Made by a program: the position numbers and the translations under genes
Source of the DNA: an uncultured Ruminococcus sp.
GTDB taxonomy: Bacteria; Bacillota; Clostridia; Oscillospirales; Acutalibacteraceae
Length of the DNA: 32,000 nucleotides
Direction of reading: 5' to 3'
NCBI GenBank assembly: GCA_902772955.1
Contig: CACYCV010000161.1
Location: 9,561 to 41,560, forward strand
Part shown: positions 5,533-22,842 of the stretch, piece after piece
Position numbering within the stretch: position 1 is the first letter of the stretch
Layout: every line of letters begins with the position of its first letter
Notes under the pieces: model-generated
Told to the model about the DNA's origin: nothing
The model's input: only the letters and a program-made list of their open reading frames with translations
Database searches by the model: none

Positions 5533-5574
5533 CCCTGGTTTTGTTTAACGACAGGATGGTGCCAACGAACTGTC
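5533..5574 (-). promoter_or_regulatory. preQ1-I riboswitch aptamer
   Basis: The minus strand reads GACAGUUCGUUGGCACCAUCCUGUCGUUAAACAAAACCAGGG. P1 is GACAG/CUGUC and the loop begins UUCG. The A-rich tail UUAAACAAAACCAGG resembles characterised class I aptamers. A tail CCA can pair with a loop UGG to form the P2 pseudoknot. The element sits directly upstream of a preQ1 biosynthesis operon. Confidence 0.7.
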
Positions 5575-5605
5575 TATTCATTAGAATCGCTAACTGACAT
5601 ATTTT

Positions 5606-8432: not shown

Positions 8433-8489
8433 GAGGATTTTCTTTTTGAGAAAATGGCAGAATATATAAAATTTCTGAGGAGGTATTTT

Positions 8490-9635: not shown

Positions 9636-9716
9636 GGGTGTACACGAATTGTGTAAGAACAATGATCAGAATATGATATAATAGAAGTATCATCAGCAAC
9701 AATCGAGGTGAATACC

Positions 9717-10397: not shown

Positions 10398-10398
10398 A

Positions 10399-10433
10399 CA
10401 AAGGACCTGTGTTTCTCAAGCACAGGTCCTTTG
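10399..10433. terminator. Hairpin between convergent genes (GT2 + / hydrolase -)
   Basis: A perfect 13-bp stem pairs CAAAGGACCTGTG with CACAGGTCCTTTG around a 9-nt loop. A T-rich tail (TTTGTTTAG) is present on the minus strand only. Confidence 0.65.
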
Positions 10434-10471
10434 CTGTAGACAGCGGGACTAACAAAAGATAATGATGGAAT

Positions 10472-11476
10472 TCATGCAATGGCATGTCGATAAAATGAAA
10501 GCACCTGGTTCATATAATTTTCATCAAGAATATTTGCCTGATGTTTGTCCGTGGGGTTATCGGTTTTGGCAAGATAACGGGCAGCATCCTCCCGGAGCCA
10601 GAGAGTATTATGCCCGCCCCGATAGGGAGCTTCAATCAGTAGAGTAACCGCATTTGGGTTGGTGATTTCATCCTTTTTGTGCAGGATACTGATATCCTCC
10701 GTGACGATGTCGTCAGTGTTTCCGCCAATGATCAGAACAGGTGTCCTGACGGAATTAACGGCAGCTATGACAGTTTCGTTGGAATCATTTCCGAAGAGGA
10801 AATAATTTTGCAGGCACATAAAGGGGTATTGCAAATCGGCCAGAAAACCCACATAGCGTCTGGCATGATGCAGCATATTTTCGTTGGGTTCATTGAAGCC
10901 GGCAACGCAAACCGCTGCCCGGATGCTGTCATCATCCTGCAGAGCTGTTCCCACCGCATATCCGCCAAGAGAATGGCCGTAGAGCAGAAGCGGAAGCCAA
11001 CAGAGGTCTGATCTGCTCCGGATATACGCTATGGCAGACCTGACATCCAGCCGTGCCTGGGCAATTCCCACGGTTCCGTTTCCCTGACTGTGTCCTACCC
11101 CTGTGTATTCAAAGGTGAATACGGAAAAACCGTTGTCTACAAACCAAAGTATTTCCGGCAAATGGCGGTCAATACAACAGTTCATTCCGTTTGCCAACAG
11201 AATAATTCCGCTTGATTTCTCTTTCGGCTGGTACAAGCATCCAAAAAGCTGTTGATTTCCTGATGGAAACCAAAGCTCTTCACGGGGATACCGATCCTGA
11301 TCAATGTCATCGTAGGTCAGCTCATAAGGGGCAATGGAACCGGAGCGGGAAAAGATGATCTGAAAAATGATAACGGATCCCGCCATGGATACCACCACAT
11401 AAGAAAGAGTGGAAACGATCAGAATAATGCACACCTTCCTGATTCGCCGTCGTTTAGGTGTCACCGGCTTTTTCAT
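10472..11476 (-). CDS. Membrane-anchored alpha/beta hydrolase (paralog 1)
   Basis: An N-terminal TM helix is present (VCIILIVSTLSYVVVSMAGSVIIFQIIF). The nucleophile elbow is GHSLGG. The later Asp and His contexts are GGNTDDIV and YRGGHNTLW. The start was set to ATG 11476 (AAAGGAAGAG RBS); the track start is 11515. Confidence 0.75.
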   Translation of the reverse strand: MKKPVTPKRRRIRKVCIILIVSTLSYVVVSMAGSVIIFQIIFSRSGSIAPYELTYDDIDQDRYPREELWFPSGNQQLFGCLYQPKEKSSGIILLANGMNCCIDRHLPEILWFVDNGFSVFTFEYTGVGHSQGNGTVGIAQARLDVRSAIAYIRSRSDLCWLPLLLYGHSLGGYAVGTALQDDDSIRAAVCVAGFNEPNENMLHHARRYVGFLADLQYPFMCLQNYFLFGNDSNETVIAAVNSVRTPVLIIGGNTDDIVTEDISILHKKDEITNPNAVTLLIEAPYRGGHNTLWLREDAARYLAKTDNPTDKHQANILDENYMNQVLSFYRHAIA

Positions 11477-11521
11477 AAGACTCTTCCTTTCTATTTTGGG
11501 CTGTCTGAACAACATTTATAC

Positions 11522-11551
11522 AAAAAAAGCACCGACATCGATCGGTGCTTT
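11522..11551 (-). terminator. Intrinsic terminator ending the 11-gene lipid operon
   Basis: The minus strand reads AAAGCACCGA-TCGATG-TCGGTGCTTT followed by TTTTTG. It lies directly after the stop of the last gene (11557). Confidence 0.8.
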
Positions 11552-11556
11552 CGTCA

Positions 11557-11973
11557 TTACAGTTTACCAAGCTTGCTCATAGCAACGGAGGTTTTCAGTG
11601 CGTCAGGGTGCTGAATGGCCATGATAATTAGGAAGGTATAAAGGATTGTCATGCCGATACTTGCAAAGATACCGGCAATAGCAAGCTTCTTGCCAATCCG
11701 GACCTGCTTTGAGATATCACCATAGGTCGAAACATAGTTATTGGCCTTAACGATGCCAATAATGGAAAAAATCAGACCGAAAATAGCCAAGCAACAGCCA
11801 ACAGCCACAGATACAATACCAAATACCAATACCTGAACGTGATTTCCCTGTGATTGTGTGCCCATAGAAGAATTGGGCTGAGTTTGATAGGGTGCTGCTC
11901 CGGCAACGGGTGTTCCACACCTCGGGCAAAAAAACTGCCCATCAACGGGTGTTCCGCATTTCTGACAAATCAT
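11557..11973 (-). CDS. Zinc-ribbon membrane protein (two C-terminal TM helices, DUF4190-like)
   Basis: The start is at ATG 11973 (AGGAG RBS). The CxxC...CxxC motif is MICQKCGTPVDGQFFCPRCGTPV. A Gln/Ser-rich linker and two hydrophobic helices follow. Confidence 0.65.
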   Translation of the reverse strand: MICQKCGTPVDGQFFCPRCGTPVAGAAPYQTQPNSSMGTQSQGNHVQVLVFGIVSVAVGCCLAIFGLIFSIIGIVKANNYVSTYGDISKQVRIGKKLAIAGIFASIGMTILYTFLIIMAIQHPDALKTSVAMSKLGKL

Positions 11974-12011
11974 AGAATACTCCTTTCCTGCAGTTTCCTG
12001 CAAACACAAAA

Positions 12012-12986
12012 TCATTCGCCGAGAATACCATCGGTTACTGTCTTATTATGACATAATTCTCCTAAAAAATCAACTATTACCTGATCATATTTTTCCGAAG
12101 CATGTATTTTTATATGAGAATGTGCCCCTTTTTCAAAATACACCAGTCGTTTAGGAGCAGGGCACTGCTCATACAAGACCTTGGCCTTTTCAGGAAGTGA
12201 AAAAATGTCTTCTTTGCTTTGCAGCATCAGAATAGGCTTTCGCAGGTTTCTGATCCGGAAAATCGGTCCGTCTTTTTTGATATCATAGCCTGAAAACAAT
12301 CGTATATAGCCCCGAAGCTCCCATAAGGCCGGATAGACCGGCTGATGAAAGGCCTTGATGCGATAATACAGCATATCATAGAACCGGGTAAACATTCCCT
12401 CGCTTGTCATTCCCTGCACATAATCGGGACAGTCTCCGGAGGTCAGGGCAAACAGCGCATGAGAAGCGCCGATGCAGATTCCGTGAAGAAATACCAGTTG
12501 ATTATTCATCTCATCATGCAGCATGCGGCACCAGCAGAGCACATCCTGGTATTCCCGATAGCCAAGGGAGTTGACTACGCCATCGGATTTTCCATGAGAA
12601 CGGCAGTCTATTACCAGAACATTATAGTCCGCCCTGCGGTAGGCTTCGGCAAAATAATAGGAGTATAACATAGACTCCGTTCTGCCGGAGATAATGATTA
12701 CAGCTTTGTCTGAGTTAAAATCAAAATACTCACCGAACAAATGATACTTGCCGCTGTAGAGATCGACAGGACAACGACGCCTGACGTACTTCTCTGCCCA
12801 TTCCAGGCCTGTATAATACATTTCTGTGATTTCTTTATCCTTTGGGACGCTGCATTTTCTGGCCCATTTTCCCTTTCGGGTACGTACCAGCAATATCAGG
12901 TACAGAACGGCCGGGACAATGATCAAAGGAGCAATAACCAGAAAAAATACAGCAATTCCTATCAGAATTCCAATCCAGATATTCAT
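12012..12986 (-). CDS. Membrane-anchored alpha/beta hydrolase (paralog 2) with Cys at the nucleophile position
   Basis: An N-terminal TM helix is present. The elbow reads HGICIGAS, aligned with GLSMG and GHSLG in the paralogs. The Cys171 codon TGC is at 12474-12476. The Asp and His contexts are SKEDIFS and EKGAHSH. Confidence 0.75.
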   Translation of the reverse strand: MNIWIGILIGIAVFFLVIAPLIIVPAVLYLILLVRTRKGKWARKCSVPKDKEITEMYYTGLEWAEKYVRRRCPVDLYSGKYHLFGEYFDFNSDKAVIIISGRTESMLYSYYFAEAYRRADYNVLVIDCRSHGKSDGVVNSLGYREYQDVLCWCRMLHDEMNNQLVFLHGICIGASHALFALTSGDCPDYVQGMTSEGMFTRFYDMLYYRIKAFHQPVYPALWELRGYIRLFSGYDIKKDGPIFRIRNLRKPILMLQSKEDIFSLPEKAKVLYEQCPAPKRLVYFEKGAHSHIKIHASEKYDQVIVDFLGELCHNKTVTDGILGE

Positions 12987-13018
12987 CCGTTTTCCTCGCT
13001 TTTCTATTAACGATGGGG

Positions 13019-14683
13019 TTATACAAGTCCAAGAATCCAGTGATAGACACTCTGTCCCCCGTTGACAAATTCAACATCCAGAGTGGGATAGGCTTCACCC
13101 AGCGCCCGCAGCAGGATTTCCTCGTGTTCCTCCGGAACACCTTCTCCGCGGAAAACCACGCAGGTTTCCTTATCCTCCATATCCTCCACTTCCTGAAGAC
13201 CCTGCATAATCGGCGTAAGCCATTGATTGCTGACACAAACAAGATGATGATCCAGCAGCAGGATCTCGTCTCCCTTCCGGCAGCTGACAGATCCCTCGGT
13301 ATAATCCCGGAAGGCAGTTGTTTCACAAAGTGTAACGGTGTTTTCCATGCCGCCGGTCATTTCACTGATGCGAAAATCAATGTCGGTACTATTGCTGACA
13401 TCCATTGCCATGGCGAAATAACCTTCTGCGATGCTTTTGGAGGGAAGCACGGTGACTATTTTTTTATCGTACAGTTTGATAGCTTGCTGCGCGGCAAGAA
13501 TCACATTCGGATGGTTGGGAAGAACGACGATAGCATCTGCGTCCAGGCCGGCAAAGGCATCCAGAAACTCCTGGGATGAGGTATTCATGGTGGAACCGCC
13601 GTCAATGACAACGTCACATCCCAGATCGGAAAATATCCGTTTCATTCCTTCTCCGTTGGCAACCGCAACGGTAGCCAGCAGCTTGTGAATTTTCCTGGGC
13701 TTCTGAGAGGAAAGCAGCTTTTCATGTTCGTTGTGCTGAACCTGCATATTTTCCAGCTTAAAGGTCAGAAACTCGCCGTAACGCTGGCTAAGCAGAATTA
13801 CCTTCGCTGGGGACAGGGTATGAATATGTACCTTGATCCGTTTTTCGTCCTGAACCACGACCAAAGAATTGCCGCATTCCTTCAAGGCTTCTATATATTC
13901 CTCCAGCACGAAATCCTGCCGGTAGCAGGGTGCCTTCAGCAGCTGCAGAATATACTCCATACAGTAGCCGTCCTGAAAGCTGCTGTTTTCATCAAACAGA
14001 TCAAATCCGGCTCCGGTGGAAGCAGTGCTTTCTTCAGGAGCAGTGTCACTGATGATCTCTCCCCTGAGATAAGAGAGAATTCCCTCGGTAATCGTAATAA
14101 ATCCAAGGGCACCGCTGTCAACCACGCCGGCCTCTTTGAGTACAGGAAGCAGTTCCGGCGTTTTATCAAGGAGATTATTCATCGTGGAAAGATAGCGGGA
14201 AAGAAAATCCTCTAAACTCAATTCAGGTGTAACGGAATCCCTGATGGTTTCGATCCCCTCCCGGGTGACGGTGAGAATGGTTCCTTCTGTGGGGTTGACA
14301 ACCGCCTTATAGGCGACCTGATAGCCCTTGACCAGACCTTGACTGTATTCTACCGTTCCGATGGACTGACAATCCCGAAGCACAAGACTAAAGCCCTTGA
14401 AAAACTGAGACAGGATCACGCCGGAATTCCCTCTGGCACCCAGCAGCATCCCTTTGCTGAAGCGTTCCATATAAGCGCCGAGATGATTATCTGAGCCGGC
14501 ATATCGGATGCCGCTTTCCAATGTCAGACGCATATTGGTTCCGGTATCTCCGTCTGAAACAGGAAAAACATTCAGGCGGTTTATTTCCCGTTCCAATTGT
14601 CGGAGTCTTGCCAGTCCGTTTTTCAGCATTTTTTCAAACTGTAAGCCGTCAATTCTTTTTTCGCTCGTCACGGTGGTGATCAC
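13019..14683 (-). CDS. fakA: Dak2-domain fatty-acid kinase subunit (FakA / YloV family)
   Basis: 554 aa. The DhaL/Dak2 motif is FPVSDGDTGTNM. Size and domain order match YloV/FakA. The GTG start overlaps the stop of the upstream DegV gene (GTGA). Confidence 0.75.
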   Translation of the reverse strand: MITTVTSEKRIDGLQFEKMLKNGLARLRQLEREINRLNVFPVSDGDTGTNMRLTLESGIRYAGSDNHLGAYMERFSKGMLLGARGNSGVILSQFFKGFSLVLRDCQSIGTVEYSQGLVKGYQVAYKAVVNPTEGTILTVTREGIETIRDSVTPELSLEDFLSRYLSTMNNLLDKTPELLPVLKEAGVVDSGALGFITITEGILSYLRGEIISDTAPEESTASTGAGFDLFDENSSFQDGYCMEYILQLLKAPCYRQDFVLEEYIEALKECGNSLVVVQDEKRIKVHIHTLSPAKVILLSQRYGEFLTFKLENMQVQHNEHEKLLSSQKPRKIHKLLATVAVANGEGMKRIFSDLGCDVVIDGGSTMNTSSQEFLDAFAGLDADAIVVLPNHPNVILAAQQAIKLYDKKIVTVLPSKSIAEGYFAMAMDVSNSTDIDFRISEMTGGMENTVTLCETTAFRDYTEGSVSCRKGDEILLLDHHLVCVSNQWLTPIMQGLQEVEDMEDKETCVVFRGEGVPEEHEEILLRALGEAYPTLDVEFVNGGQSVYHWILGLV

Positions 14684-15615
14684 TCCGATGCATTCAGTAA
14701 TTTCGTGAAAAGTTCCTTCTCTTCCTGCAGATCCTTCGAAATGGATTTTCCCATATAATAGGCCGCCATCAGACCAGGTCCGATATTAATGCCGGAACCA
14801 GGAAAGACATCTACAATTCGGATTTCCTTGGGATGAATGGTTTCTTCGATCATTTTTTTATACTGCTCAGCCTGCGGGAGCCGGTTGGACTGGGCGATAA
14901 AAATCATCTGAGTTTCCGGATGCTCAATGGTAGCGGCGATATACTTCAAAAGAACGCTGTAGGCTTTTTTAGCTCCCTTTGCCTTGCCTAGGACAGTTGT
15001 CATTCCGTTATAGTCGAATTCTCCGATGGGCTTGACGCCGATCAGTGTTCCCATCAGGGCCGCGGCATGATTGATTCTACCCTTTTTGGCAACAAAGGAA
15101 AGATCGTCCAACCAGCCCGCCTGATGATAACGACATTTGTTTTCTTCAATCCAGGCGGCAGTCTCTTCCAGCGTTTTTCCTTGGCTGCGAAGCAAAGATG
15201 CACGGACAGCAATCAGTCCAAAGCCTGGTCCGAAGCGCAGGGAGTCAATGAGACGGATATCCGCATGGGGGTATTCTTCCTTGACCTGCTCGATACCCTT
15301 TGCGGCAAAACTGTAGCTTCCGCTCATGGTTGAGGACATGGTGATAACAAGAATGCCATAGCCCTGCTTGAGATATTCTCTGAAGGCTTCTGCAAACAAT
15401 TCAGGGTTTGGCGGTGAAGTGGAATAGCCGTTGGGATTCTTTTTCAGCTTATTGTAAAAATCTTCCCGGTCATAGGTTTTCCAGCTCAGAAACTGCCTGA
15501 TATCCGTATTATCCGGCAGATGAATGTGGCCGACAACCGTCTTGATGTCGAATTCCTGCTGCATCTCTTCGCTGAGATCAGAGGTGCCGTCTGCAATGAT
15601 GATGAATTTCTTCAT
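14680..15615 (-). CDS. fakB: DegV-family fatty-acid-binding protein (FakB-type)
   Basis: 311 aa. The N-terminus is typical of DegV (MKKFIIIADGTSDLSEE). The gene is translationally coupled to the Dak2/FakA gene. Confidence 0.7.
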   Translation of the reverse strand: MKKFIIIADGTSDLSEEMQQEFDIKTVVGHIHLPDNTDIRQFLSWKTYDREDFYNKLKKNPNGYSTSPPNPELFAEAFREYLKQGYGILVITMSSTMSGSYSFAAKGIEQVKEEYPHADIRLIDSLRFGPGFGLIAVRASLLRSQGKTLEETAAWIEENKCRYHQAGWLDDLSFVAKKGRINHAAALMGTLIGVKPIGEFDYNGMTTVLGKAKGAKKAYSVLLKYIAATIEHPETQMIFIAQSNRLPQAEQYKKMIEETIHPKEIRIVDVFPGSGINIGPGLMAAYYMGKSISKDLQEEKELFTKLLNASE

Positions 15616-15621
15616 GGTTTT

Positions 15622-16572
15622 TCACTCCTTTGAAAAATCAGGGAAGTAATGTCTGACAAATGACAAGAGAACCTGTTCTGCCCGCTGTCGATCCTCCAGG
15701 AAACTGAGAGTATGGTGTCCGTTTTCCATCAGGAGAAATTCTTTTGGAGAGGCACAGGCATCATAGATAACCTGTCCCCAGTGTGGATCAACGGTCAGAT
15801 CGTTGGTTCCCTGTACCACCAATACCGGGCACTTTGCATGAGAAAGTGCTGCTGTAGTGGGGGTTTTGATATCAACATGAAAGAAGATTCCGGCCATCAG
15901 ACGTTCTGTCAGAAGGAGAATCTTCGGTATGTGACGCTTAATGGCGTCGCTTCGCATCTGTTCATGGACAGAATAGTAGCAGCTGTCCAGCACAATGCCA
16001 CGTACAATGTCCGGATCCAACGTATCAGAGGCATAGGCAATGGCCGAGGCACCCATGGACAAGCCGTAAAGCAGTATCTGCGTTGCCCCCTGCTTCTGTG
16101 ACCATTGGATCCAGGAAAACACATCTTTTTTTTCACGCAGTCCGATGGTGGTCCAGTGTCCCTCACTCTGACCGTGAGAACGGTGGCAGATTAACAAAAC
16201 ATTAAAGCCGTTCCTACGGAAGAAATCAGCCTGTCCGGAACAGTTGGTGTACATTTCTGCCCCAAGGCCATGAAAGATAATTGCCGTACGGGGATAACCG
16301 CCGTCATAGTATTCGCCGTAAAGCTTTAATCCATCATAGGAAACAGTGCTGACCGGATGATGCTCTTGTGAAAGGATACTGCTGCGGGCTGAGGCGATTC
16401 TGTCCAGATATGGAATATAATAGTGATTGCGAAAACGCTTCCGATTATACTGCTCAAAAGGTACCGATTTTTTTCTTCTGAAAACCAAAACAAAAACCAC
16501 CAGGGTGGGAGCGATGATAAACACCAGCAAGCAGGCGGCGGCAATCAGAAGAATGATTCCCCAGACAGACAT
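15622..16572 (-). CDS. Membrane-anchored alpha/beta hydrolase (paralog 3)
   Basis: An N-terminal TM helix is present (VWGIILLIAAACLLVFIIAPTLVVFVLVF). The elbow is GLSMGAS. The Asp and His contexts are QGTNDLTV and ENGHHTL. A GGAGGGTG RBS lies upstream. Confidence 0.75.
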   Translation of the reverse strand: MSVWGIILLIAAACLLVFIIAPTLVVFVLVFRRKKSVPFEQYNRKRFRNHYYIPYLDRIASARSSILSQEHHPVSTVSYDGLKLYGEYYDGGYPRTAIIFHGLGAEMYTNCSGQADFFRRNGFNVLLICHRSHGQSEGHWTTIGLREKKDVFSWIQWSQKQGATQILLYGLSMGASAIAYASDTLDPDIVRGIVLDSCYYSVHEQMRSDAIKRHIPKILLLTERLMAGIFFHVDIKTPTTAALSHAKCPVLVVQGTNDLTVDPHWGQVIYDACASPKEFLLMENGHHTLSFLEDRQRAEQVLLSFVRHYFPDFSKE

Positions 16573-16584
16573 ATCTTCACCCTC

Positions 16585-17430
16585 CTACATAAAACGCTTT
16601 TTGCCAAGCAATGCAGCAAAGTCATTTTCCACCCAGAAGTATCTGGCTGCTGCTGCATTTTTTCCGCTGATGGAAACGGGGATTTCCGGCTCTCTCAGTG
16701 TCTTGACCACATCGCCGTCCGGAGTATCTGTTCTGAGAATGACAGCCTCATTGGATACGGCAACAGCGGCAACGGATCCGGTACTGCTCATGGAAAAATG
16801 GAAGCTGCTGCAGACCCATTTTCCGCTGAGCTTTCGTTTCAGTCCGGCTTTTGACAAATCCGTGTGAAAGGAACGTTCCGCTGCAATCGACATAAGCCTC
16901 CAGCAGGTGATTACCCTGCGCCGTTCTTCCTCCTGACGGAAGGCCTGAATCTCCCGCAGGAGCTTTTCCGGAAGTGTATCCGGTATCGCATGTGCATCAG
17001 TGACAGCCGACAGATAGACATCGCAGATCCGTTGATTCGCCCATCGTTTTCGGACCTCCTCTTCCTGACTGCAGCGAGAGATGCCGAAGATACATTCATT
17101 GACAAAATGCTCACAGTTATGATGGATCAGATCATAACCTCCCTCTCCCAGACGGGAGCGGGCTTTCCGGATCGTTTCCTCAGGAGGAAAGCGCTTCTTC
17201 AGCTCGCCTCGTTCGAGGCAGGCAGTTTCTATGATACAGCCGCAGGAAAAAACGTCAATATTGGTGGCAAGAACAACGACTTCTCCTTCGGCTGCCCGGT
17301 TTTCCGCAGTAGGAGGCAGTCCGAACTGGATGATCTCATTTTCACTGACAAAAATCCCGTAATGATAGAGCGCTCCCAGGCGAACCCGGATCATATCACC
17401 GGGATGACATTCTTTTGGCTCCCATTTCAT
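16585..17430 (-). CDS. LRAT/PLAAT-like (NlpC/P60 superfamily) Cys-His acyltransferase/phospholipase domain fused to a degenerate Sfp-type PPTase-like region
   Basis: The N-terminal His box is LYHYGIFV and the catalytic-Cys motif is HHNCEHFVNE. The C-terminal ~150 aa follows the Sfp pattern (GKW...FHFSMSSTG; FWVENDFAALLGKK versus W-x-KE-x-x-K). It lacks the G-I/V-D-x-E metal motif. Confidence 0.6.
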   Translation of the reverse strand: MKWEPKECHPGDMIRVRLGALYHYGIFVSENEIIQFGLPPTAENRAAEGEVVVLATNIDVFSCGCIIETACLERGELKKRFPPEETIRKARSRLGEGGYDLIHHNCEHFVNECIFGISRCSQEEEVRKRWANQRICDVYLSAVTDAHAIPDTLPEKLLREIQAFRQEEERRRVITCWRLMSIAAERSFHTDLSKAGLKRKLSGKWVCSSFHFSMSSTGSVAAVAVSNEAVILRTDTPDGDVVKTLREPEIPVSISGKNAAAARYFWVENDFAALLGKKRFM

Positions 17431-17684
17431 GACAATGCGCCCTCGATATAGCTGATAACATCTCCGACGGTCTGGAATTCGTTCATGGAAACGCCGGAGA
17501 AGCGGATCTGAAATTCCTCTTCTGTGGCAATAATCAGATAAAGCATATTGACTGAGGTCAGTCCCAGGTCATATTGCAGGTTGGTTTGTTCATCAATCGT
17601 TTCGATGATGTCACCGCTGCGCTCATCCATAGAATAGAGAATTCCTTTTAAGCGTTCCAGTATTTCTTTTTTACTCATTGACAT
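17427..17684 (-). CDS. Stand-alone acyl carrier protein
   Basis: 85 aa. The phosphopantetheine-site context is DLGLTSVNMLYLIIATEEEF (compare DLGLDSLD...EEEF). It overlaps both neighbours (ATGA with the LRAT gene). The alternative start at ATG 17678 forms ATGAGTAA with the stop of the upstream adenylase gene (17671-19182). Confidence 0.8.
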   Translation of the reverse strand: MSMSKKEILERLKGILYSMDERSGDIIETIDEQTNLQYDLGLTSVNMLYLIIATEEEFQIRFSGVSMNEFQTVGDVISYIEGALS

Positions 17685-19182
17685 TTTTGTATCTCACAAT
17701 CTTTAGACTTGGTGTTCTTTCAAAATCCTTCTCACGGATTACCATCCTGCTGACCTGTTGAAAGGACGGAAGACCGGCATTGATTTTCTGGCATTCCTGG
17801 AGAACATAGGCATTAACATCCACGGTTCCCAGTTTGGCAGCCTCTGATGCCCGCAGAACAATTTCCAGGGCAAGAAAGCGATTGCCCTTTTCATCCTGAT
17901 CCTCAAAGACCTGGGTATCCTGGATAATGGGCAGGGCGTTGAATTTGGCTTCCAGCTCTGCCGGAGAAATATTTTCGCCGCTGGGGAGAACAATTACTTC
18001 CTTGATTCTGCCGGTGATATAGAGAAAACCCTCTTCGTCCATACGCACCAGATCGCCGGTTTTGAACCAGCCGTCTTCATAGGCATCCGTTTCATCTGTG
18101 CCTACATAACCATCCATCATGTTCTTACCTTTCAGCCACAGTTCTCCGTCTACAATGCGGTATTCCATTTCCGGATAGATCAGTCCGACAGAATCCGGTT
18201 TATTCAGGAATTCCGGATTGCCGGAAACCAGGTTAGCCGATTCCGTCAGGCCATAACCAGGATACAGGTCGATACCATATTGCTGATATTCTTTTGTCAA
18301 ATAAGGCGGTACACTGGCTGCTCCGCAAATAATGGTATGCAAGCTGTTGCCTAACATCATTTTGCCAAACTTTTTGGAAAGTGCCAGTGTCATTTCTGCC
18401 AGTGCAGGCACCATGATCATGATAGTCGGCTGAAAGACGGCGGCATCACGGAACATATCCTTGTTATCGCGGCAAATCTTTAACGTGCTCCCGGTGTAAA
18501 GTGACGCCATCAGATTGCGGATCAGACCAAACACATGAAACAGGGGCAGAACCAGAAGATATCGCTGACCAAAGGATTTCGGAAGGCCGAGACAGCTATT
18601 GATCGAACCCTGCATAACTGCCGTATGGGAAAGAAGGGCACCTTTGGGACGTCCTGTTGTCCCGCCTGTCATCATGATGACGCACTCGTCCTTTCCCTCA
18701 CACGGTACCGACGGGGTTGCTTCCGATGCGGTTGTTTCCGGGAGAATAACCGGAAAAGCGGGATTCATCTTTTGCAGCAGATTTCCTTTTTCGGCATGAT
18801 CTGTAATCAGCATGGAAAATCTCAGCATCTGACTCAGCCCGAATAATTCTTTCTCCTGCAAATGAGGCGGCAGAATCACGGCAGTACATCCCAGTGTTAC
18901 CGTGGCAAGAAACGCTTTGACCAGATCATAGCAATTGGGCATGCACAAGGCAATGCGTGTTTTTTCCACTCCCTGTTCTTTCAGAACGGTTCTGAAGCAG
19001 GCAACGTCCTGTGACAGGGTTTGATAAGAATATTGCTTGTCCAGATCTTCGATGGCAATTCTGTCACTGTACTCTTTGGACCTTGCCTCCCACATATCCG
19101 TCAAAGACGGATAATGAATGATTTTTTGAAAGGTTTCCTCGCCGGTAAAACGACGGTAAAGTTCCAAGGTATCTGCTATCAT
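17671..19182 (-). CDS. Adenylate-forming enzyme, long-chain fatty-acid ligase-like (ANL superfamily)
   Basis: 503 aa. Canonical motifs are present: TGGTTGRPKG, GYGLTE, FKTGD and GRIKEVIVLPSGENISPAELE. An AGGAGG RBS lies upstream. Confidence 0.85.
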   Translation of the reverse strand: MIADTLELYRRFTGEETFQKIIHYPSLTDMWEARSKEYSDRIAIEDLDKQYSYQTLSQDVACFRTVLKEQGVEKTRIALCMPNCYDLVKAFLATVTLGCTAVILPPHLQEKELFGLSQMLRFSMLITDHAEKGNLLQKMNPAFPVILPETTASEATPSVPCEGKDECVIMMTGGTTGRPKGALLSHTAVMQGSINSCLGLPKSFGQRYLLVLPLFHVFGLIRNLMASLYTGSTLKICRDNKDMFRDAAVFQPTIMIMVPALAEMTLALSKKFGKMMLGNSLHTIICGAASVPPYLTKEYQQYGIDLYPGYGLTESANLVSGNPEFLNKPDSVGLIYPEMEYRIVDGELWLKGKNMMDGYVGTDETDAYEDGWFKTGDLVRMDEEGFLYITGRIKEVIVLPSGENISPAELEAKFNALPIIQDTQVFEDQDEKGNRFLALEIVLRASEAAKLGTVDVNAYVLQECQKINAGLPSFQQVSRMVIREKDFERTPSLKIVRYKNVNE

Positions 19183-19199
19183 TTGAATAGTCCTCCTGT

Positions 19200-19844
19200 T
19201 TAAAGTTTTTTGGCATATTCTTCAAGTATGGTTTCCTTTTCCTGAAGCTCCTTCGTAATGGCTTGTATTTTGGCAAATGACGGTCTTCCCCCACTGGCGG
19301 CGACAATATCCACCGGTTCTCCGATTACCGCTTTCAAACGGGAATACCAATGCTTCCGGGGCTTGATATACATCGGCACAATTGGACACCTGCTCTGGAT
19401 AGACATCAGAATCATACCGGATTTGAACTGACTCATTTCGTCCCGGTAGATATGTCCCTCCGGAAAAATCGTTACCATTTTTCCCTCTTTCAGGGTGTCA
19501 GTAATAGTGCGGAAGGAGTCGATGCTGACATTATCGGCATGAATGGGGATCATACAGCCGGCTGCACGAAAAAGAGGGGCTGCCCGGGATTCCATCAGCG
19601 TATGATGGCAGACAAAATATTGCCGACGGTACCAGACGGAATACATGGTGTGCAGGGGATCAAAAAAGCTGGTATGATTGGCTATCAGAAGAGTACCGCC
19701 CCGGATTTTTTTGCGGGCTTCCCTGGAAATAAAGCGTATTTTAGGTCGGAGCCAGATAAAACCAGGGAACCATCCGGTAATGCGGACAAAATCCATCAGA
19801 AAGCATCTGAGAGAAAATAATTTAGCCTTTTGAGGTTTGTTCAT
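19200..19844 (-). CDS. PlsC/LPLAT-family acyltransferase (copy 2)
   Basis: 214 aa. The HX4D motif is NHTSFFD. FPEGHI and PIVPMY are also present. It overlaps the upstream paralog by 23 nt. Confidence 0.8.
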   Translation of the reverse strand: MNKPQKAKLFSLRCFLMDFVRITGWFPGFIWLRPKIRFISREARKKIRGGTLLIANHTSFFDPLHTMYSVWYRRQYFVCHHTLMESRAAPLFRAAGCMIPIHADNVSIDSFRTITDTLKEGKMVTIFPEGHIYRDEMSQFKSGMILMSIQSRCPIVPMYIKPRKHWYSRLKAVIGEPVDIVAASGGRPSFAKIQAITKELQEKETILEEYAKKL

Positions 19845-20463
19845 GTAACTGACGCTCCAATCGGATGATTTTTTCCCGCAGGGCAGCAGAGATTTTTTCG
19901 AGATTTTCTTTTTCTGTCAGGGAATCGTCTACATAGTCTCTTGCATACACTGGCGTACCAATGATAACCCTTGCTCGTTTTTTACAGAAATAGGCGCCGT
20001 TGGTATAAACCGGAATGATCGGTATATTGTTCATCAGACTCAGATAGGCCGTTCCCGGTTTGAACGGAAGGGGCCTTTCTTCTCCATTTTTGGGAAGACG
20101 TCCCTCCGGAAAAATCTGAACGACGCCGTGCTTTTCAAGTACGGACTGTGATTTTCCCATAAATCCGAACTGCATACTGTCCCGGTCCACCCGGATTCCT
20201 CCCATCATTCTGAGAAAAAGACCTAACAGCTTTTTTCGGAAAAGCACCTCTGCCATTTGTGTTCTCAGAGTCCGGAAGAAAAAAACAAATAAAAAAACAG
20301 CATAATCCCACACAGATGTGTGGTTTGATATCAGAATGGCCGGCCCATTGATGTGACGACTCTGAATTTTTTTGTCTTCATAATAGACCTTTGTACGAAA
20401 AACCGCCTTCTGAACAGGGTAACCGGTTATCTTGACAAAGGCATTCCAAAGCTGAATCAACAT
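19822..20463 (-). CDS. PlsC/LPLAT-family acyltransferase (copy 1)
   Basis: 213 aa. The HX4D motif is NHTSVWD. FPEGRL and PIIPVY are also present. The start overlaps the upstream stop (ATGTTGA). Confidence 0.8.
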   Translation of the reverse strand: MLIQLWNAFVKITGYPVQKAVFRTKVYYEDKKIQSRHINGPAILISNHTSVWDYAVFLFVFFFRTLRTQMAEVLFRKKLLGLFLRMMGGIRVDRDSMQFGFMGKSQSVLEKHGVVQIFPEGRLPKNGEERPLPFKPGTAYLSLMNNIPIIPVYTNGAYFCKKRARVIIGTPVYARDYVDDSLTEKENLEKISAALREKIIRLERQLHEQTSKG

Positions 20464-22394
20464 GATTTTGAATTTTCCTTCATGTATTGATAGAATTCCT
20501 CGGCGGTGCGCAGCGTCTGATCATCCTGCCGGAGAAAGGAAACGCCATAGTCCTCCTGAAGTCTGGCGGTAAGTGCCATATAATCCAGACTGGTGCCTCC
20601 CAGATCCAGAAAAAAGTCCGTTTCCGGTGATATTTCACTGAGATCCTTTTCCAGCACTGCCGCCATCATTTGCCGGAGGGTTCGCATCAGCTCGTCCTCT
20701 TCCTCCCTGTCGGCAGCGGAATCGGGCGTTACCTGACGCAGCTTGCCCGCCGCATAATCCTCACGCAGGCGCTTGCGGTTGAGCTTAAATTCATCTCCCA
20801 GCATCAGCTTATCTGAGATATAAACAATCCTGCCCAACTGACCTGTCAGATGAAGCTCTGTCAGCTTATCCTTTAATCGGCTATCCAGCTGTTCCAGCTG
20901 GCTTCCCTCGCAATAACGATTGACCGATACCAACAGCACAGGGGTATCCTTGCTGGGGATGATGCAGACGCCGTTTGTTCCTTCGATACTAAGCTGAGGC
21001 TCGTACAAATTGGGATTGAGATTTTCTCCGTTGGAGGAGACAATCAGATCATCTGTCCGGCCAAGAATACGGTATTCCCCCCTGACGCATTCTGCGAGAT
21101 CATGGGTATTAAACCATTTTTCAGGATCGGTCATGGTTTTTTGGCCGTTTTCAATGATATAGCGGGCGACAACCTTTCCCCTCACCAACAATTCACCGTC
21201 ATCATTGATAGAATATTCGGCATAGGTCATTGGTTTCCCGACAAAGCAGGCATTCAGAATTTTGGGCCGGTTGGAAAGCTCCACGGAGGTAATGCCGATT
21301 TCTGTCATGCCGTAGCCGTCAGCCAACCGGTAGCCGATAGCATTAAAAAACTCCATGACTTCCGGACGAATGGCGCTGCCGCCGGTAATCAGGATACAGA
21401 TACTTTCACCGAAAAGATTCTCTCTGACCTCCTTGAAGGCAGTCCGTGAAAACAGGTGACTCAATGCGGTCATGCCGGATAGCTTCCGCGAGAGTTTCAT
21501 TCCCTTTTGAAATTTCCGATAAGTTTTTTGTCCCCTTCCCCTGATGGTTTTGATTGCCTGGTCATAAACCGTTTCCCAGAACAGAGGGACAGCAAAGATA
21601 TGCGTTACTTTATGTCGTTTAATCGTATTGACAATGGTCTGTGGGGTCATATCATTGAGATGCACAAAGGTTCTTGAGAAAAATGCAAACCAGATGTACA
21701 TGGCAATCAGACCGAATACATGATAGAATGGCAAAAAAGTCAGCAACTTCAGATATCCGTCATAATGACGCTTGAACAAAGAGCATTTTTGGATAAGGTG
21801 ATAGCTGTCATGAATCTGACACCGGAACTCCTTGGCGGAATAGGCACAGATTTTGATATGATCGGAGGTACCGGAGGACATCACCAGGATTTCTTCTCCG
21901 AATTTCCGGGGCTTCCATGGGGGTTCTGTTTTGACAAGCTCCTTAGTGTCAATAGTAGGAAAAGAATAGCTCCTTTGATCGGACAAAACGGCACAAGCAT
22001 GACTATCCTTCAGAGCTTGCTCCAATACGTCATCACTCAGACGAAGGTTCATCAGCAGCGGACACCAGCCGCAAAGGAGAATAGCCCAAAATAACTCAAT
22101 CCACAAAAGGGAATTCTCCATACTCAGACCGACGACCGCATTATCCGGCAGGTCAAGCCGCTGTTTCAGTGTGGCTGCCAGTAAATAGATTTCCTCCTTG
22201 GCTTCTCCATAGGTGGTAATCTGCATCCGGTAGCCTTCGCTTTTTTCATACATCCGGTTTTCTGATTCACTGAACATTAATTCAAACAGAGATGAAAAAT
22301 CCGGTTCTGACTGATCCAACAGTTGTAGCTTAGCTTCCACAAAGCGATTAATGGTTTTATGAGTTCCTAAGCCGAGATTTTTCTGTTTTTTCAC
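20457..22394 (-). CDS. Divergent adenylate-forming enzyme fused to a C-terminal PCP-type carrier domain (A-T didomain)
   Basis: 645 aa with a GTG start and an AGAGGAAGGAAG RBS. ANL motifs GYGMTE, NTHD and GRTDDLIVSSNGENLNP are present. The P-loop-like motif is degenerate (SSGTSDHIK). The C-terminal carrier motif is DFFLDLGGTSLDYMAL. Confidence 0.8.
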   Translation of the reverse strand: MKKQKNLGLGTHKTINRFVEAKLQLLDQSEPDFSSLFELMFSESENRMYEKSEGYRMQITTYGEAKEEIYLLAATLKQRLDLPDNAVVGLSMENSLLWIELFWAILLCGWCPLLMNLRLSDDVLEQALKDSHACAVLSDQRSYSFPTIDTKELVKTEPPWKPRKFGEEILVMSSGTSDHIKICAYSAKEFRCQIHDSYHLIQKCSLFKRHYDGYLKLLTFLPFYHVFGLIAMYIWFAFFSRTFVHLNDMTPQTIVNTIKRHKVTHIFAVPLFWETVYDQAIKTIRGRGQKTYRKFQKGMKLSRKLSGMTALSHLFSRTAFKEVRENLFGESICILITGGSAIRPEVMEFFNAIGYRLADGYGMTEIGITSVELSNRPKILNACFVGKPMTYAEYSINDDGELLVRGKVVARYIIENGQKTMTDPEKWFNTHDLAECVRGEYRILGRTDDLIVSSNGENLNPNLYEPQLSIEGTNGVCIIPSKDTPVLLVSVNRYCEGSQLEQLDSRLKDKLTELHLTGQLGRIVYISDKLMLGDEFKLNRKRLREDYAAGKLRQVTPDSAADREEEDELMRTLRQMMAAVLEKDLSEISPETDFFLDLGGTSLDYMALTARLQEDYGVSFLRQDDQTLRTAEEFYQYMKENSKSC

Positions 22395-22429
22395 CGTTTC
22401 TTCTTCCTTCCTCTTTTCACTAATGATAG

Positions 22430-22458
22430 ATTATACTACAAATAGCGACACGTTTCAA
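22430..22458 (-). promoter_or_regulatory. Sigma-A promoter of the lipid operon
   Basis: The minus strand has TTGAAA (22458-22453), a 17-nt spacer and TATAAT (22435-22430), about 35 nt upstream of the GTG start. Confidence 0.65.
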
Positions 22459-22502
22459 GTTTTTTGGGCGGTTTTTTCAAAGGAACTTTAAAGAAATAAG
22501 TA

Positions 22503-22531
22503 TTGACAAGCATAATCTGTCATGCTATAAT
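22503..22531 (+). promoter_or_regulatory. Sigma-A promoter of the trp operon
   Basis: TTGACA (22503-22508), a 17-nt spacer, then TATAAT (22526-22531), with TG at 22523-22524 (extended -10). Confidence 0.75.
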
Positions 22532-22537
22532 CATTGA

Positions 22538-22828
22538 AAATCGGATATATAAACCGATGATGCGGAGATAACGGCATGGATGCCTTTACAGAGAGCCTGT
22601 GGTGCTGAGAGTCAGGTAAGAAACACTATGTCAAATGGACCGCTGAGGGCGCAGCCAAAGGGGATTCTTCCCTCAGTATGCTGTGACGTTGCAGGCAGAC
22701 GTTACCTGCCGGGGATATGTTGGTATCTCGCAGAGGGCACGGGTTTTCCGTGAATGTAAGGTGGCACCGCGAATTTGTTGATTCGTCCTTAGCAGAATTC
22801 TGGATTCTGTTAAGGATTTTTTATTTTT
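22538..22828 (+). promoter_or_regulatory. T-box riboswitch leader, Trp-specific
   Basis: Stem I elements are present (AGAGAG...GGTGC...AGAG). The candidate specifier is UGG followed by A (22636-22639). The T-box sequence is AAGGTGGCACCGCG (22758-22771). The terminator is TCCTTAGCAGAAT/ATTCTGTTAAGGA (22786-22816) followed by TTTTTTATTTTT. It lies directly upstream of the trpE RBS. Confidence 0.85.
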
Positions 22829-22842
22829 AGGAGGCGTTTCGT

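Follow-up and report, generated by a model that had tools for sequence, protein, structure and literature searches.

The window, by which we mean the whole stretch of 32,000 nucleotides analysed, contains eleven minus-strand open reading frames running from 22394 to 11557, which genes are given here together with their signals and neighbours.

22548-22793: T-box leader of the trp operon (95.3 bits), divergent from the operon
22430..22458, minus: sigma-70-type promoter, TTGAAA-17 nt-TATAAT, 11/12 consensus positions
20457..22394, minus: gene 1, A-T didomain, 645 aa, divergent adenylase (AMP-binding, 3e-33) with fused carrier domain (PP-binding, 3e-11)
19822..20463, minus: gene 2, PlsC-type acyltransferase 1 (PlsC1), 213 aa (PF01553, 4e-19)
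19200..19844, minus: gene 3, PlsC-type acyltransferase 2 (PlsC2), 214 aa (PF01553, 4e-16)
17671..19182, minus: gene 4, stand-alone adenylase of the acyl-CoA-synthetase class, 503 aa (AMP-binding, 4e-57)
17427..17684, minus: gene 5, private acyl carrier protein (ACP), 85 aa (PP-binding, 5e-7)
16585..17430, minus: gene 6, PLAAT/LRAT-type Cys-His domain (LRAT, 1e-16) with decayed Sfp-type PPTase remnant
15622..16572, minus: gene 7, abh1, Ser alpha/beta hydrolase, predicted membrane-anchored, 316 aa (Hydrolase_4, 1e-14)
14680..15615, minus: gene 8, DegV/FakB-type fatty-acid-binding protein, 311 aa (DegV, 3e-54)
13019..14683, minus: gene 9, FakA-type kinase, 554 aa (Dak2, FakA_M, and FakA_C)
12012..12986, minus: gene 10, abh2, alpha/beta-fold enzyme with cysteine nucleophile, predicted membrane-anchored, 324 aa (Hydrolase_4, 2e-11)
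11557..11973, minus: gene 11, zinc-ribbon protein, two hydrophobic segments, 138 aa (or 152 aa with a start at 12015)
11516..11552, minus: intrinsic terminator, 12-bp stem, 4-nt loop, U-run
10472..11476, minus: associated gene 12, abh3, third paralogous Ser alpha/beta hydrolase (Hydrolase_4, 1e-13), downstream of the terminator

A sequence-only reading of this DNA had proposed an eleven-gene operon with a single near-consensus promoter and a single intrinsic terminator, and that operon is real: all the reading frames lay at the positions first claimed; the junctions of genes 1 to 11, obtained from the ORF coordinates, were in order −7, −23, +17, −14, −4, +12, +6, −4, +32, and +38 nt—values identical to those given before, gene 5 thus sharing 14 nt with gene 4 and 4 nt with gene 6—and Pfam and NCBIfam profile searches agreed with all eleven family assignments. 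The promoter at 22458..22430 was the best minus-strand match within the 13.5 kb from 10000 to 23500, and its end lies 36 nt upstream of the GTG at 22394, whose Shine–Dalgarno sequence is AAGAGGAAGGAAG. The terminator hairpin folded with a dG of −17.8 kcal/mol (z = −4.3), a stability equalled by 0 of 200 shuffles. Two junctions depend on the start codon chosen: the ribosome-binding site before the GTG of gene 9 at 14683 is weak, and a second in-frame GTG follows 12 nt (4 codons) downstream, so that the gene 8/9 junction is either −4 or +9; and the final +38 assumes the ATG of gene 11 at 11973, which codon has the better Shine–Dalgarno (GGAAAGGAG), the value becoming −4 with the longest ORF, from 12015. 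The upstream boundary is formed by a divergent promoter (12/12) serving the trp operon and by the T-box leader of the latter, while downstream abh3 was found again at the same place in many related loci and is hence a recurrent neighbour.

About 80 other species-level genomes, all from rumen and gut Oscillospiraceae, show the same succession of genes, with proteins 50–70% identical, for which reason the arrangement must be more than chance. Among the carriers of the block are the cultured Ruminococcus sp. JL13D9 and JE7B6 and Ruminococcaceae bacterium P7. Among eligible loci, synteny held for PlsC1 in 75/75, PlsC2 in 73/73, the adenylase in 66/68, the ACP in 67/68, LRAT in 65/67, abh1 in 61/63, DegV in 63/63, FakA in 56/56, and abh2 in 53/53, so that the block co-occurs across related genomes, its flanks excepted, no flank family appearing in more than six of the loci compared. 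In the reverse test, starting from LRAT homologs drawn independently from metagenomes, the ACP was immediately upstream in 67 of 68 loci and an adenylase upstream in 42 of 43, those homologs being located in such an operon almost without exception. The catalytic residues of all the enzymes, along with both carrier serines, are conserved in 52–79 orthologs each.

The P-loop of gene 1, SSGTSxHxK, is atypical yet conserved, and H225, E365, D432, R446, and K537, as well as the carrier Ser602, were kept in 77–79 of 79 orthologs. The divergence of this protein is strong, only a generic A-PCP fold being recognisable, and its AF2 model best matched the A-PCP didomains of CAR (5msw) and McyG (4r0m). 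Gene 4, for its part, has all its core motifs canonical and conserved; its closest solved structures are the feruloyl-/fatty-acyl-CoA synthetases 8wev/8weu, FadD13 (3r44), and MenE (E 1e-34 to 1e-32), the similarity to feruloyl-CoA synthetase equalling that to the fatty-acyl-CoA synthetases. Both adenylases carry the LPxxHVFG A4 motif and belong to the acyl/aryl-CoA-synthetase class, with fatty acids, most likely long-chain, as the probable substrates. An amino-acid class, whose adenylation model scored much lower on both, was ruled out by that motif and by the nearest solved relatives (FadD13, MenE, and the fatty-/feruloyl-CoA synthetases). ACP models reached at most 43 bits on gene 5, under every cutoff, and Ser44 was present in 56/56 orthologs; the two carriers first postulated each have an intact phosphopantetheine serine. 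In gut Clostridia, free fatty acids are loaded on private ACPs by free-standing adenylases (FAA pathway, PMC13310621).

Gene 6 had been described as an LRAT/PLAAT-like fusion, of which the Cys-His domain (residues 1–130) stood, whereas the partner (about residues 135–281) now proved to be an Sfp-type phosphopantetheinyl transferase, decayed in the window. The former domain, a bacterial relative of the human PLAAT/LRAT enzymes, matched human PLAAT3 and PLAAT2 directly (4e-7), with H23 and C106 invariant; the AF2 model matched PLAAT3 and about half of Sfp. Relatives of ~345 aa have an intact PPTase (PF01648) with the motifs VGVDxE and WTxKEAxFK, both of which are missing in the window clade, where ~60 aa have also been deleted. 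The fused PPTase ties the PLAAT/LRAT enzyme to the carriers; and, because it has decayed in the window clade, another PPTase must prime the carriers there.

Both PlsC-like proteins have an intact HX4D motif (H48 and D53 of gene 2 in 67/67 orthologs, H57 and D62 of gene 3 in 65/65), and at 26% identity they are old paralogs. Their top scores were with Aas-type acyl-ACP:phospholipid acyltransferase models, yet far under every curated cutoff: PRK08633, the best NCBIfam match of gene 2, gave 57 bits with that protein (cutoff 1221) and 70 bits, also under cutoff, with gene 3; gene 2 in addition matched the T. maritima PlsC 5kym (6e-5). The earlier wording, split Aas-like but not Aas, dlt, OlsAB, or ElbD, holds in view of those scores, and the operon resembles a split version of LplT/Aas without being a member of that family. 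The sub-cutoff PlsC scores, the divergence of gene 1, and the feruloyl-CoA synthetase match of gene 4 count against the lipid acylation proposed below.

The fold of the two alpha/beta hydrolases was likewise upheld; abh1 has a Ser nucleophile, but in abh2 the nucleophile is a cysteine, the invariant C171. In abh1, with an N-terminal hydrophobic segment (residues 1–34) and with esterases and lipases as its closest solved structures, GxS172xG, D258, and H287 were kept in 53/53 orthologs; in its paralog abh2 (27% identity, 1e-28), G-I-C171-I-G and D260 were kept in 54/54 and H289 in 52/54. Another paralog of abh1 is abh3 (1e-11), whose GHS168LG was kept in 18/18 orthologs; at its N terminus a basic stretch precedes a hydrophobic segment, from which its catalytic domain is predicted to be extracytoplasmic. 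Gene 8 exceeded the cutoff of TIGR00762 (194 bits versus 99.7), as gene 9 did that of TIGR03599 YloV (478 versus 396), the latter protein being a paralog, at 37% identity, of a second FakA, of more canonical type, that locus L073 encodes apart from the operon. The occurrence of adenylate/thioester and acyl-phosphate activation side by side in one operon counts against the function proposed. Gene 11, with hydrophobic segments at 43–79 and 97–121, gave only matches under cutoff (zinc-ribbon, 'CCC motif membrane protein') and occurs in about one in two related loci, at times in 2–3 tandem copies.

The eleven genes had been taken as one set; and, although the block is conserved, it proved divisible. 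Its core comprises the adenylase, the ACP, and the LRAT-PPTase, to which most loci add the A-T didomain and both PlsC-type acyltransferases. FakAB and the hydrolases occur only in the Ruminococcus-like clade, the window included; the Saccharofermentans-type loci, L166/L167, and L132 all lack them. An arrangement in which each adenylase has its own PlsC is not borne out by L166/L167, where a single A/ACP pair stands alongside both PlsC genes, or by L132, a stand-alone minimal cassette that pairs A/ACP with LRAT and has no PlsC. This same cassette raises the alternative that LRAT may be the ancestral transfer enzyme, on a possibly non-lipid acceptor; while the Wzy_C membrane protein that replaces FakAB and the hydrolases in the Saccharofermentans-type loci hints at an envelope glycoconjugate as the acceptor. 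An MFS_2 transporter gene, present in 27/56 loci, overlaps PlsC1 or stands directly ahead of it in L166/L167 and in L130, an order that in these two instances recalls lplT-aas; the best solved relatives of its profile were the MFSD2A lysolipid symporters, at a weak E of 0.0035–0.06. The absence of a transporter gene from the window and that weak similarity count against lipid acylation as the function.

The first interpretation of the operon as a whole is thus partly supported, and our literature search found no published account of such a system. The gene content, the intact catalytic motifs, the conservation, and the modular build are observed facts; the chemistry, the nature of the acids and of the acceptor, and the topologies of the proteins belong to a scheme that we infer. 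In it, the two adenylases (genes 1 and 4) would activate acids with ATP and load them as thioesters on the private carriers, one being the T domain of gene 1 and the other the 85-aa ACP, both primed by the LRAT-fused Sfp-type PPTase in most relatives. The two Aas-like PlsC-type enzymes would then transfer the acyl groups from the carriers to hydroxyls of a lipid in lyso or partly acylated form, the acceptor perhaps being a (lyso)phospholipid, which in many relatives the MFS_2 transporter might deliver or flip, as LplT does for Aas. The PLAAT/LRAT-type enzyme, whose gene directly follows that of the ACP, and abh2 would form thioester acyl-enzymes that either hand on the acyl group of acyl-S-ACP to another acceptor or edit the carriers. 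The Ruminococcus-like clade has added what may be a supply module: abh1 and abh3, as serine esterases, would free fatty acids for the FakB/FakA pair to capture and convert to acyl-phosphate, which is the donor in the first acylation of PlsY type. In the rumen and gut Oscillospiraceae, this chromosomal operon would then acylate membrane lipids by way of carrier proteins and independently of the FASII ACP, drawing on free carboxylic acids of exogenous or recycled origin, among which long-chain fatty acids are the likeliest. We propose this function tentatively, with slightly less than even confidence.

The eleven minus-strand ORFs that the sequence-only reading had placed between positions 22394 and 11557 were all found where it had put them, and the junctions that we recomputed from the ORF coordinates (-7, -23, +17, -14, -4, +12, +6, -4, +32, and +38 nt, negative values denoting overlaps) coincided with those it had listed. 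The -14 value corresponds to the overlap of genes 4 and 5; the +38 junction presupposes that gene 11 begins at the ATG at 11973, which start has the better ribosome-binding site; and the start codon of FakA is ambiguous by four codons. In the order of transcription, the operon encodes an adenylase-carrier (A-T) didomain protein (gene 1), two PlsC-type acyltransferases (PlsC1 and PlsC2, genes 2 and 3), a stand-alone adenylase (A, gene 4), an ACP (gene 5), an LRAT/PPTase protein (gene 6), the hydrolase abh1 (gene 7), DegV/FakB (gene 8), FakA (gene 9), a second hydrolase, abh2 (gene 10), and a zinc-ribbon protein (gene 11), the family assignments of all eleven having been upheld by profile searches (Pfam, NCBIfam).

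The promoter proposed for the operon (TTGAAA-17-TATAAT, 22458-22430, minus strand; 11/12 consensus) and the terminator proposed for its end (a 12-bp hairpin plus a U-run, 11552-11516, minus strand) each proved to be the best minus-strand signal of its kind in the region. The terminator folded with a dG of -17.8 kcal/mol (z = -4.3), none of 200 shuffled sequences folding equally well, and no terminator was found within the operon upstream of 11552. The upstream boundary is fixed by a divergent promoter and a T-box that serve the trp operon, and the surroundings comprise the following features:

785-2383, plus strand: trypsin-like protease with a C-terminal FHA domain
2575-5581, minus strand: five genes, encoding QueF, QueC, GTP cyclohydrolase I, a radical-SAM protein, and a PTPS-family protein
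7902-10397, plus strand: TetR-family regulator, beta-lactamase-family serine hydrolase, and GT2 glycosyltransferase, convergent towards the operon end
22503-22531, plus strand: divergent promoter, perfect 12/12 sigma-70-type with an extended -10 TG
22548-22793, plus strand: T-box leader (95.3 bits)
22785-22817, plus strand: T-box terminator
from 22843, plus strand: trp operon, first gene trpE, under the divergent promoter and the T-box

The five-gene stretch is likely devoted to preQ1/queuosine synthesis, and the window at large consists of ordinary chromosomal genes (the queuosine operon, glgB, and the trp genes), with a GC content that is uniform along its length. The trio of TetR, beta-lactamase-family, and GT2 genes was not kept beside the operon in other genomes.

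Conservation was assessed in a collection of one genome per species (185,579 species), which does not include the window's own genome and in which the best identity was 72%. Relatives of the A-T didomain protein were present in 189 stretches, mainly from rumen or gut Ruminococcus or Oscillospiraceae MAGs, together with three cultured strains. Among the best 80 of these 189 loci, with the denominators limited to those long enough to judge, we found PlsC1 in 75/75, PlsC2 in 73/73, the stand-alone adenylase in 66/68, the ACP in 67/68, the LRAT protein in 65/67, and abh1 in 61/63, with order and strand unchanged at 50-70% identity, so that the co-occurrence of the gene set in related genomes, on which the sequence-only reading had depended, was borne out. 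No flanking family recurred in more than 6 of the approximately 80 loci. When the test was reversed and anchored on LRAT genes from metagenomes, an ACP lay directly upstream in 67/68 loci, an adenylase upstream in 42/43, an A-T gene upstream in 28/29, and a DegV gene downstream in 38/42.

A few related loci have other arrangements. In L132 an adenylase 49% identical to gene 4 is accompanied by only an ACP and an LRAT-PPTase gene, with housekeeping genes on both sides. Three Saccharofermentans-type loci (L163-L165) have the order A-T, PlsC, PlsC, A, ACP, LRAT-PPTase, and then Wzy_C, without FakAB or the hydrolases; and two loci of a Ruminococcaceae clade (L166 and L167) lack the A-T gene and read MFS_2, PlsC, PlsC, A, ACP, and LRAT-PPTase, the MFS_2 gene overlapping PlsC1 and, in L166, being a long form that occupies the position of the A-T gene. 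L130 retains all the genes in a rearranged order, with an MFS_2 gene directly ahead of PlsC1. The Wzy_C and long MFS_2 genes are positioned as follows:

L163, 9448-11223: Wzy_C membrane protein (O-antigen-ligase family), 590 aa, directly after LRAT-PPTase
L164, 11019-12791: Wzy_C, likewise 590 aa and directly after LRAT-PPTase
L165, 7703-9475: Wzy_C, likewise 590 aa and directly after LRAT-PPTase
L166, 5137-6978: long MFS_2 form (613-645 aa), immediately before PlsC1, with an 8-nt overlap
L130, 5025-6962: long MFS_2 form, likewise immediately before PlsC1 with an 8-nt overlap

The proposal that the eleven genes form one system accordingly stood with respect to the core, which is retained, and did not stand with respect to FakAB and the hydrolases, which are absent from L163-L165, L166/L167, and L132. 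These absences would favor the explanation that esterases without any functional tie to an A/ACP/PlsC cluster, and a fakB-fakA pair of the housekeeping kind, have come to lie beside it by chance, as would a 10/12 promoter-like site inside gene 6 (17258-17231, minus strand), ahead of the genes for the hydrolases and FakAB, which site might permit the separate expression of that module. We nevertheless regard a chance adjacency as very improbable: in the best 80 loci DegV (63/63), FakA (56/56), and abh2 (53/53) are maintained in fixed order and strand at 50-70% identity between unconserved flanks; the junctions are of +12, +6, and -4 nt, the first terminator being the one at 11552; L130, though rearranged, keeps both gene sets together; and in the related locus L073 the operon FakA is an extra paralog. 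There a second complete FakA gene (198-1877, minus strand), some 8 kb upstream of the operon and beside a TetR-family regulator gene, encodes the more canonical protein (YloV 550 bits, vs. 478 for the operon copy of the window, these two being 37% identical), the operon FakA of L073 being the more divergent of its two paralogs. The best-supported reading is that the FakAB and esterase genes constitute a supply module acquired in one clade.

The catalytic residues were essentially invariant among 52-79 orthologs per gene; this holds for the triads of the hydrolases and the His and Cys of LRAT as well as for HX4D, the carrier serines, and the core motifs of the adenylases, A10 lysine included. 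Gene 1 combines an AMP-binding and a PP-binding domain, gene 4 has an AMP-binding domain, and gene 5 encodes a small ACP that fails every housekeeping-ACP cutoff; the A domains of genes 1 and 4 are old paralogs (24% identical). In both, the A4 motif is of the acyl/aryl-CoA-synthetase type, LP(F/L)(Y/F)HVFG (LPFYHVFG and LPLFHVFG), whose histidine is kept in 79/79 (H225) and 65/65 (H216) orthologs. The amino-acid-adenylation model TIGR01733, whose cutoff is 317 bits, gave the two proteins 43 and 106 bits and was outscored by the fatty-acid and MenE models. For gene 4 the closest solved relatives were feruloyl- and fatty-acyl-CoA synthetases, FadD13, and MenE (1e-34 to 1e-32), the A domains of NRPSs reaching only about 1e-19 and neither DltA nor AasS appearing among the sequence matches at E <= 1e-18. 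Gene 1 is highly divergent, with a MenE match at 2e-11, and in a Foldseek search its AF2 model (pLDDT 71.6) gave a generic A-PCP fold without a substrate assignment, the AasS structures 8hsy and 8i8d being among the fold matches. An 809-aa homologous protein, P0035, which was considered as a natural fusion, carries merely an N-terminal extension.

The sequence-only reading had allowed that the adenylases might fall in the amino-acid class; the motif and the model scores say otherwise, and together they make the activation of an amino acid unlikely and that of a fatty acid plausible. An adenylase, a small carrier, and a PlsC/LPLAT transferase are formally equivalent to AlmE, AlmF, and AlmG, which in Vibrio cholerae transfer glycine to lipid A. 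An aminoacyl transfer after the fashion of AlmEFG or Dlt, with adenylation of an amino acid, loading onto the carrier, and delivery to a lipid through an enzyme of the LPLAT superfamily, is in our judgment scarcely credible and was rejected on the A-domain motifs and model scores: both adenylases have LPxxHVFG where an amino-acid-type A4 motif has FDxS, with its Asp for binding of the alpha-amino group, and an MBOAT/DltB protein is absent.

That one or both adenylases take acids other than fatty acids, such as the phenylpropanoid, phenylacetic, or short branched-chain acids that abound in the rumen, for esterification to a lipid or polymer, strikes us as improbable. The top solved match of gene 4 was a feruloyl-CoA synthetase, followed by 4-coumarate ligases; abh1 matched cinnamoyl and chlorogenate esterases at 1e-7 to 1e-9; and the substrate of gene 1 is unassignable from sequence or fold. 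In the same searches, however, fatty-acyl-CoA synthetases and lipases scored equally well or better. FakB and FakA are, to our knowledge, specific for fatty acids in every characterized case, and PlsC-type enzymes normally move fatty acyl chains.

Like ElbD of Myxococcus, an adenylase-ACP-reductase-acyltransferase of ether-lipid synthesis, and like AlmEFG, the operon joins an adenylase and a carrier with a PlsC/LPLAT-superfamily transferase, which in those systems acts on a membrane lipid. No reductase or NAD-binding domain was found in any operon product, and an ElbD-like chemistry was ruled out on the absence of a reductase domain. OlsAB/OlsF was likewise discarded, there being no OlsB-like protein and the sole match being that of gene 3 to OlsF, at 19 bits vs. 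620. The reaction proposed for genes 4 and 5 would be identical to that of the soluble acyl-ACP synthetases such as AasS of Vibrio harveyi, which enzyme serves the housekeeping ACP and FASII and has no private carrier.

PlsC1 and PlsC2 matched PF01553 at 4e-19 and 4e-16, kept the His and Asp of HX4D in 67/67 and 65/65 orthologs, and are likewise old paralogs (26% identical). Their best NCBIfam matches were the Aas-type acyl-ACP:phospholipid acyltransferases, though far below cutoff: the equivalog models returned 57 and 70 bits vs. 1221 (PRK08633) and 17.8 vs. 886 (PRK08043), and the polypeptides are separate. In E. coli, Aas is a PlsC-type acyltransferase fused to an acyl-ACP synthetase, and LplT is an MFS flippase. 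Common to both systems are, then, a PlsC-type HX4D acyltransferase and an adenylate-forming enzyme that makes, or in the operon would make, acyl-ACP from a free fatty acid; the operon differs in having separate and duplicated proteins (two adenylases, two carriers, two acyltransferases), in its private carriers where Aas uses the housekeeping ACP, and in adding the LRAT-PPTase, a Cys alpha/beta enzyme, FakAB, and esterases.

The window contains no LplT-type transporter, nor one of any kind. An MFS_2 gene (PF13347, 4e-27; not of the LplT type), encoding some 450 aa and situated between fakB and fakA, occurs in 27/56 Ruminococcus-like loci, and this presence of an MFS gene in the operons of many relatives, overlapping PlsC1 in L166/L167 and L130, echoes the lplT-aas arrangement. 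The 170 extra C-terminal residues of the long MFS_2 form are hydrophobic helices without a domain match. The description of the operon as resembling a duplicated, split Aas without being Aas was sustained, membership failing on the fusion, the cutoffs, and the transporter type, as was the broader claim, to judge from the membership features tested, that it matches none of Aas, dlt, OlsAB, or ElbD. We propose that the system would work as a split, duplicated LplT/Aas with private carriers. LplT/Aas itself has been identified only in Gram-negatives, and activities of lysolipid uptake and acylation have been reported in Gram-positives as well (PMC11416262).

Glycosides are the best-known cargo of the MFS_2/GPH family, and the NCBIfam GPH and MelB models matched the transporter at 1e-12, below cutoff; in addition, Wzy_C directly follows LRAT-PPTase in the Saccharofermentans-type loci, and a GT2 gene adjoins the window operon on the opposite strand. 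These observations would accord with an envelope glycolipid or lipoglycan, for example an anchor of the lipoteichoic-acid type, acylated from the carriers at sugar or glycerol hydroxyls in the place of a lysophospholipid. We nonetheless hold this to be of low probability, in that Wzy_C is confined to the three Saccharofermentans-type loci inspected, the GT2 neighbor is unconserved and no glycosyltransferase lies within the operon, and the best solved relatives of the MFS_2 profile are the MFSD2A lysolipid symporters and not MelB, albeit as weak matches (E 0.0035-0.06).

With regard to gene 6, described earlier as an LRAT/PLAAT-like fusion, the LRAT portion was confirmed, and the fusion partner could be identified anew as a decayed Sfp-type PPTase. 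The protein matched PF04970 with 61 bits (cutoff 24); its N-terminal domain gave direct sequence matches to human PLAAT3, PLAAT2, and PLAAT4 at 1e-4 to 4e-7 (4e-7 for PLAAT3 and PLAAT2); its model superimposed on PLAAT3 (7zom, TM on target 0.74), HRASLS2 (0.70-0.74), and PLAAT4 (0.62); and H23 and C106, the Cys of NCEHF, are invariant. Relatives of about 345 aa match PF01648 with both Sfp motifs. In the window protein PF01648 gave no match and the (V/I)G(V/I)DxE and WxxKE(A/S)xxK motifs are both missing, the remnant being located as follows:

16585-17040, minus strand: PPTase remnant, C-terminal half of gene 6, motifs lost and about 60 residues deleted

Only about half of Sfp superimposed on the gene 6 model. 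The 281-aa clade of the window is thus the decayed form, the PPTase being either intact or wholly lost in other clades: of 111 LRAT genes surveyed, about 43 have the PPTase motifs, 27 are decayed like that of the window, and 41 are LRAT-only. An exhaustive search delimited a compact family (319 clusters at E <= 1e-10), of fused length in most. Among the LRAT-domain relatives a protein of 1125 aa, P0431, has ten LRAT-like stretches, a repeat architecture unlike that of the operon protein. No PPTase that would prime the two carriers is encoded in the window.

With the vertebrate PLAAT/HRASLS/LRAT proteins (PF04970) gene 6 shares the NlpC/P60-type fold and the catalytic His and Cys; in contrast to them, it has no hydrophobic C-terminal membrane anchor after the catalytic domain, the PPTase remnant being there instead, and it belongs to a family that is, or ancestrally was, fused to a PPTase and is always encoded directly after an ACP. 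The missing anchor, the ancestral PPTase fusion, and the place right after the ACP make it more likely that the acyl donor or acceptor is carrier-bound; and from the fusion, the fixed post-ACP position, and the three-gene cassette of L132 we argue that the PLAAT-like enzyme would work on an acyl-S-carrier. Our literature search found no paper pairing LRAT with a phosphopantetheinyl transferase in bacteria.

PLAATs form N-acyl-PE by acylating the head-group amine, and papain-fold Cys enzymes that condense acyl-S-ACP with amines exist, such as AdmF, the transglutaminase homologue of andrimid synthesis. A cluster for a specialized lipid might be conceived in which A and ACP make acyl-S-ACP, the LRAT Cys-His enzyme acts in the manner of a C domain upon a small amine or alcohol or upon a phospholipid head-group amine, and PlsC together with abh2 adds ester chains, to yield a lipid in its own right, which may be secreted or serve as a signal. 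The precedent is the FAA pathway of gut Clostridia, in which the free OaaA adenylase loads a free fatty acid onto the private OaaACP by the same logic, the OaaC condensation domain being the transfer enzyme (PMC13310621). A free-standing adenylase, a dedicated small ACP, a free-standing transfer enzyme, and the gut-Clostridia host are common to that pathway and the operon (OaaA and OaaACP being compared by description only), and the minimal L132 cassette, free-standing and without any other transferase, has the same three-part logic; the transfer enzymes here are instead of the PlsC type and of the PLAAT/LRAT type with a fused PPTase. The juxtaposition of LRAT and ACP in 67/68 loci, the lack of an anchor on the LRAT domain, and the label of "non-ribosomal peptide synthetase" attached to the A-T protein in some public records also speak for such a pathway, which we nevertheless consider rather unlikely. 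Genes for condensation, reductase, thioesterase, and export functions are all absent; the PlsC-type proteins resemble Aas; FakAB and the membrane-anchored esterases are better suited to lipid housekeeping; the operon is surrounded by core genes of the chromosome and its conservation is very wide; and L132 is the sole locus of its kind seen. The NRPS reading itself was rejected, since no operon product had a match to a condensation domain.

The hydrolases of genes 7 and 10 both belong to the Hydrolase_4 family and are old paralogs (27% identical). Gene 10 had been described as an alpha/beta hydrolase, which is correct as to the fold; it is, however, no ordinary Ser hydrolase, its nucleophile being a cysteine where its paralogs abh1 and abh3 have a serine. 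The enzyme would accordingly be expected, from its sequence, to form a thioester acyl-enzyme, unlike a typical lipase. The two relevant entries are:

12012-12986, minus strand: abh2, G-I-C-I-G elbow, with C171 in 54/54 orthologs, plus Asp and His
10472-11476: abh3, a third paralogous hydrolase, past the operon terminator and in the same position in related loci

The DegV protein of gene 8 matched PF02645 (3e-54) and TIGR00762 (194 bits, above the cutoff of 99.7), and gene 9 has the three FakA domains (Dak2, 2.5e-34; FakA_M, 4e-21; FakA_C, 3e-48) and exceeded the cutoff of the YloV model TIGR03599 (478 vs. 396 bits), an equivalog-level match to staphylococcal FakA/FakB1 not being reached (NF038248, 355 vs. 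975; NF038249, 92 vs. 350). The pair thus shares DegV and the three-domain FakA with the fatty-acid kinase of Firmicutes, and differs from its usual setting in being located among adenylate-forming enzymes and carriers, with a transporter gene between fakB and fakA in many relatives. Gene 11 encodes a zinc-ribbon protein with two hydrophobic segments, whose homologs form tandem arrays of two or three in some related loci (L002, 10389-11859; L073, 20786-21509; L079, 21071-21751) and are absent elsewhere.

The operon is therefore real and well conserved, and is a new combination of known families, several of whose parts are unusual; our literature search found no description of this gene combination, its nearest precedents being the FAA pathway and LplT/Aas. 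The best-supported interpretation, whose chemistry is deduced throughout from the sequence, is that the system would use carriers to acylate membrane lipids with free carboxylic acids, which are probably fatty acids, the FASII ACP being bypassed. More tentatively, we consider it possible, although rather less than probable, that the core of A, private ACP, and PLAAT/LRAT-PPTase constitutes an unrecognized carrier-dependent acyltransferase machine, whose PLAAT homolog would use an acyl-S-carrier as donor or charge the carrier from a phospholipid, and which in gut Clostridia would, with both PlsC proteins and abh2, use fatty acids from the diet or the host to make or remodel an unusual membrane lipid with multiple acyl chains (for example N-acyl-PE, or an acylated PG or glycolipid). 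If that reading is true, the operon would represent a bacterial pathway akin to the Lands cycle with carriers of its own.

Gram-positive bacteria import lysolipids and acylate them anew, and they also draw on exogenous fatty acids for membrane synthesis; we know of no characterized route for this other than FakAB/PlsX. The PPTase fusion and the obligate adjacency to an ACP would give a first functional context to the bacterial PLAAT/LRAT homologs, and since the operon is carried by cultured isolates the hypothesis is directly testable. The operon, which is widely conserved, is a candidate for an acylation route that relies on carriers and is independent of FASII in the abundant Oscillospiraceae of the rumen and gut; this function, if confirmed, would bear on how fibre-degrading rumen bacteria tolerate and use dietary lipids.
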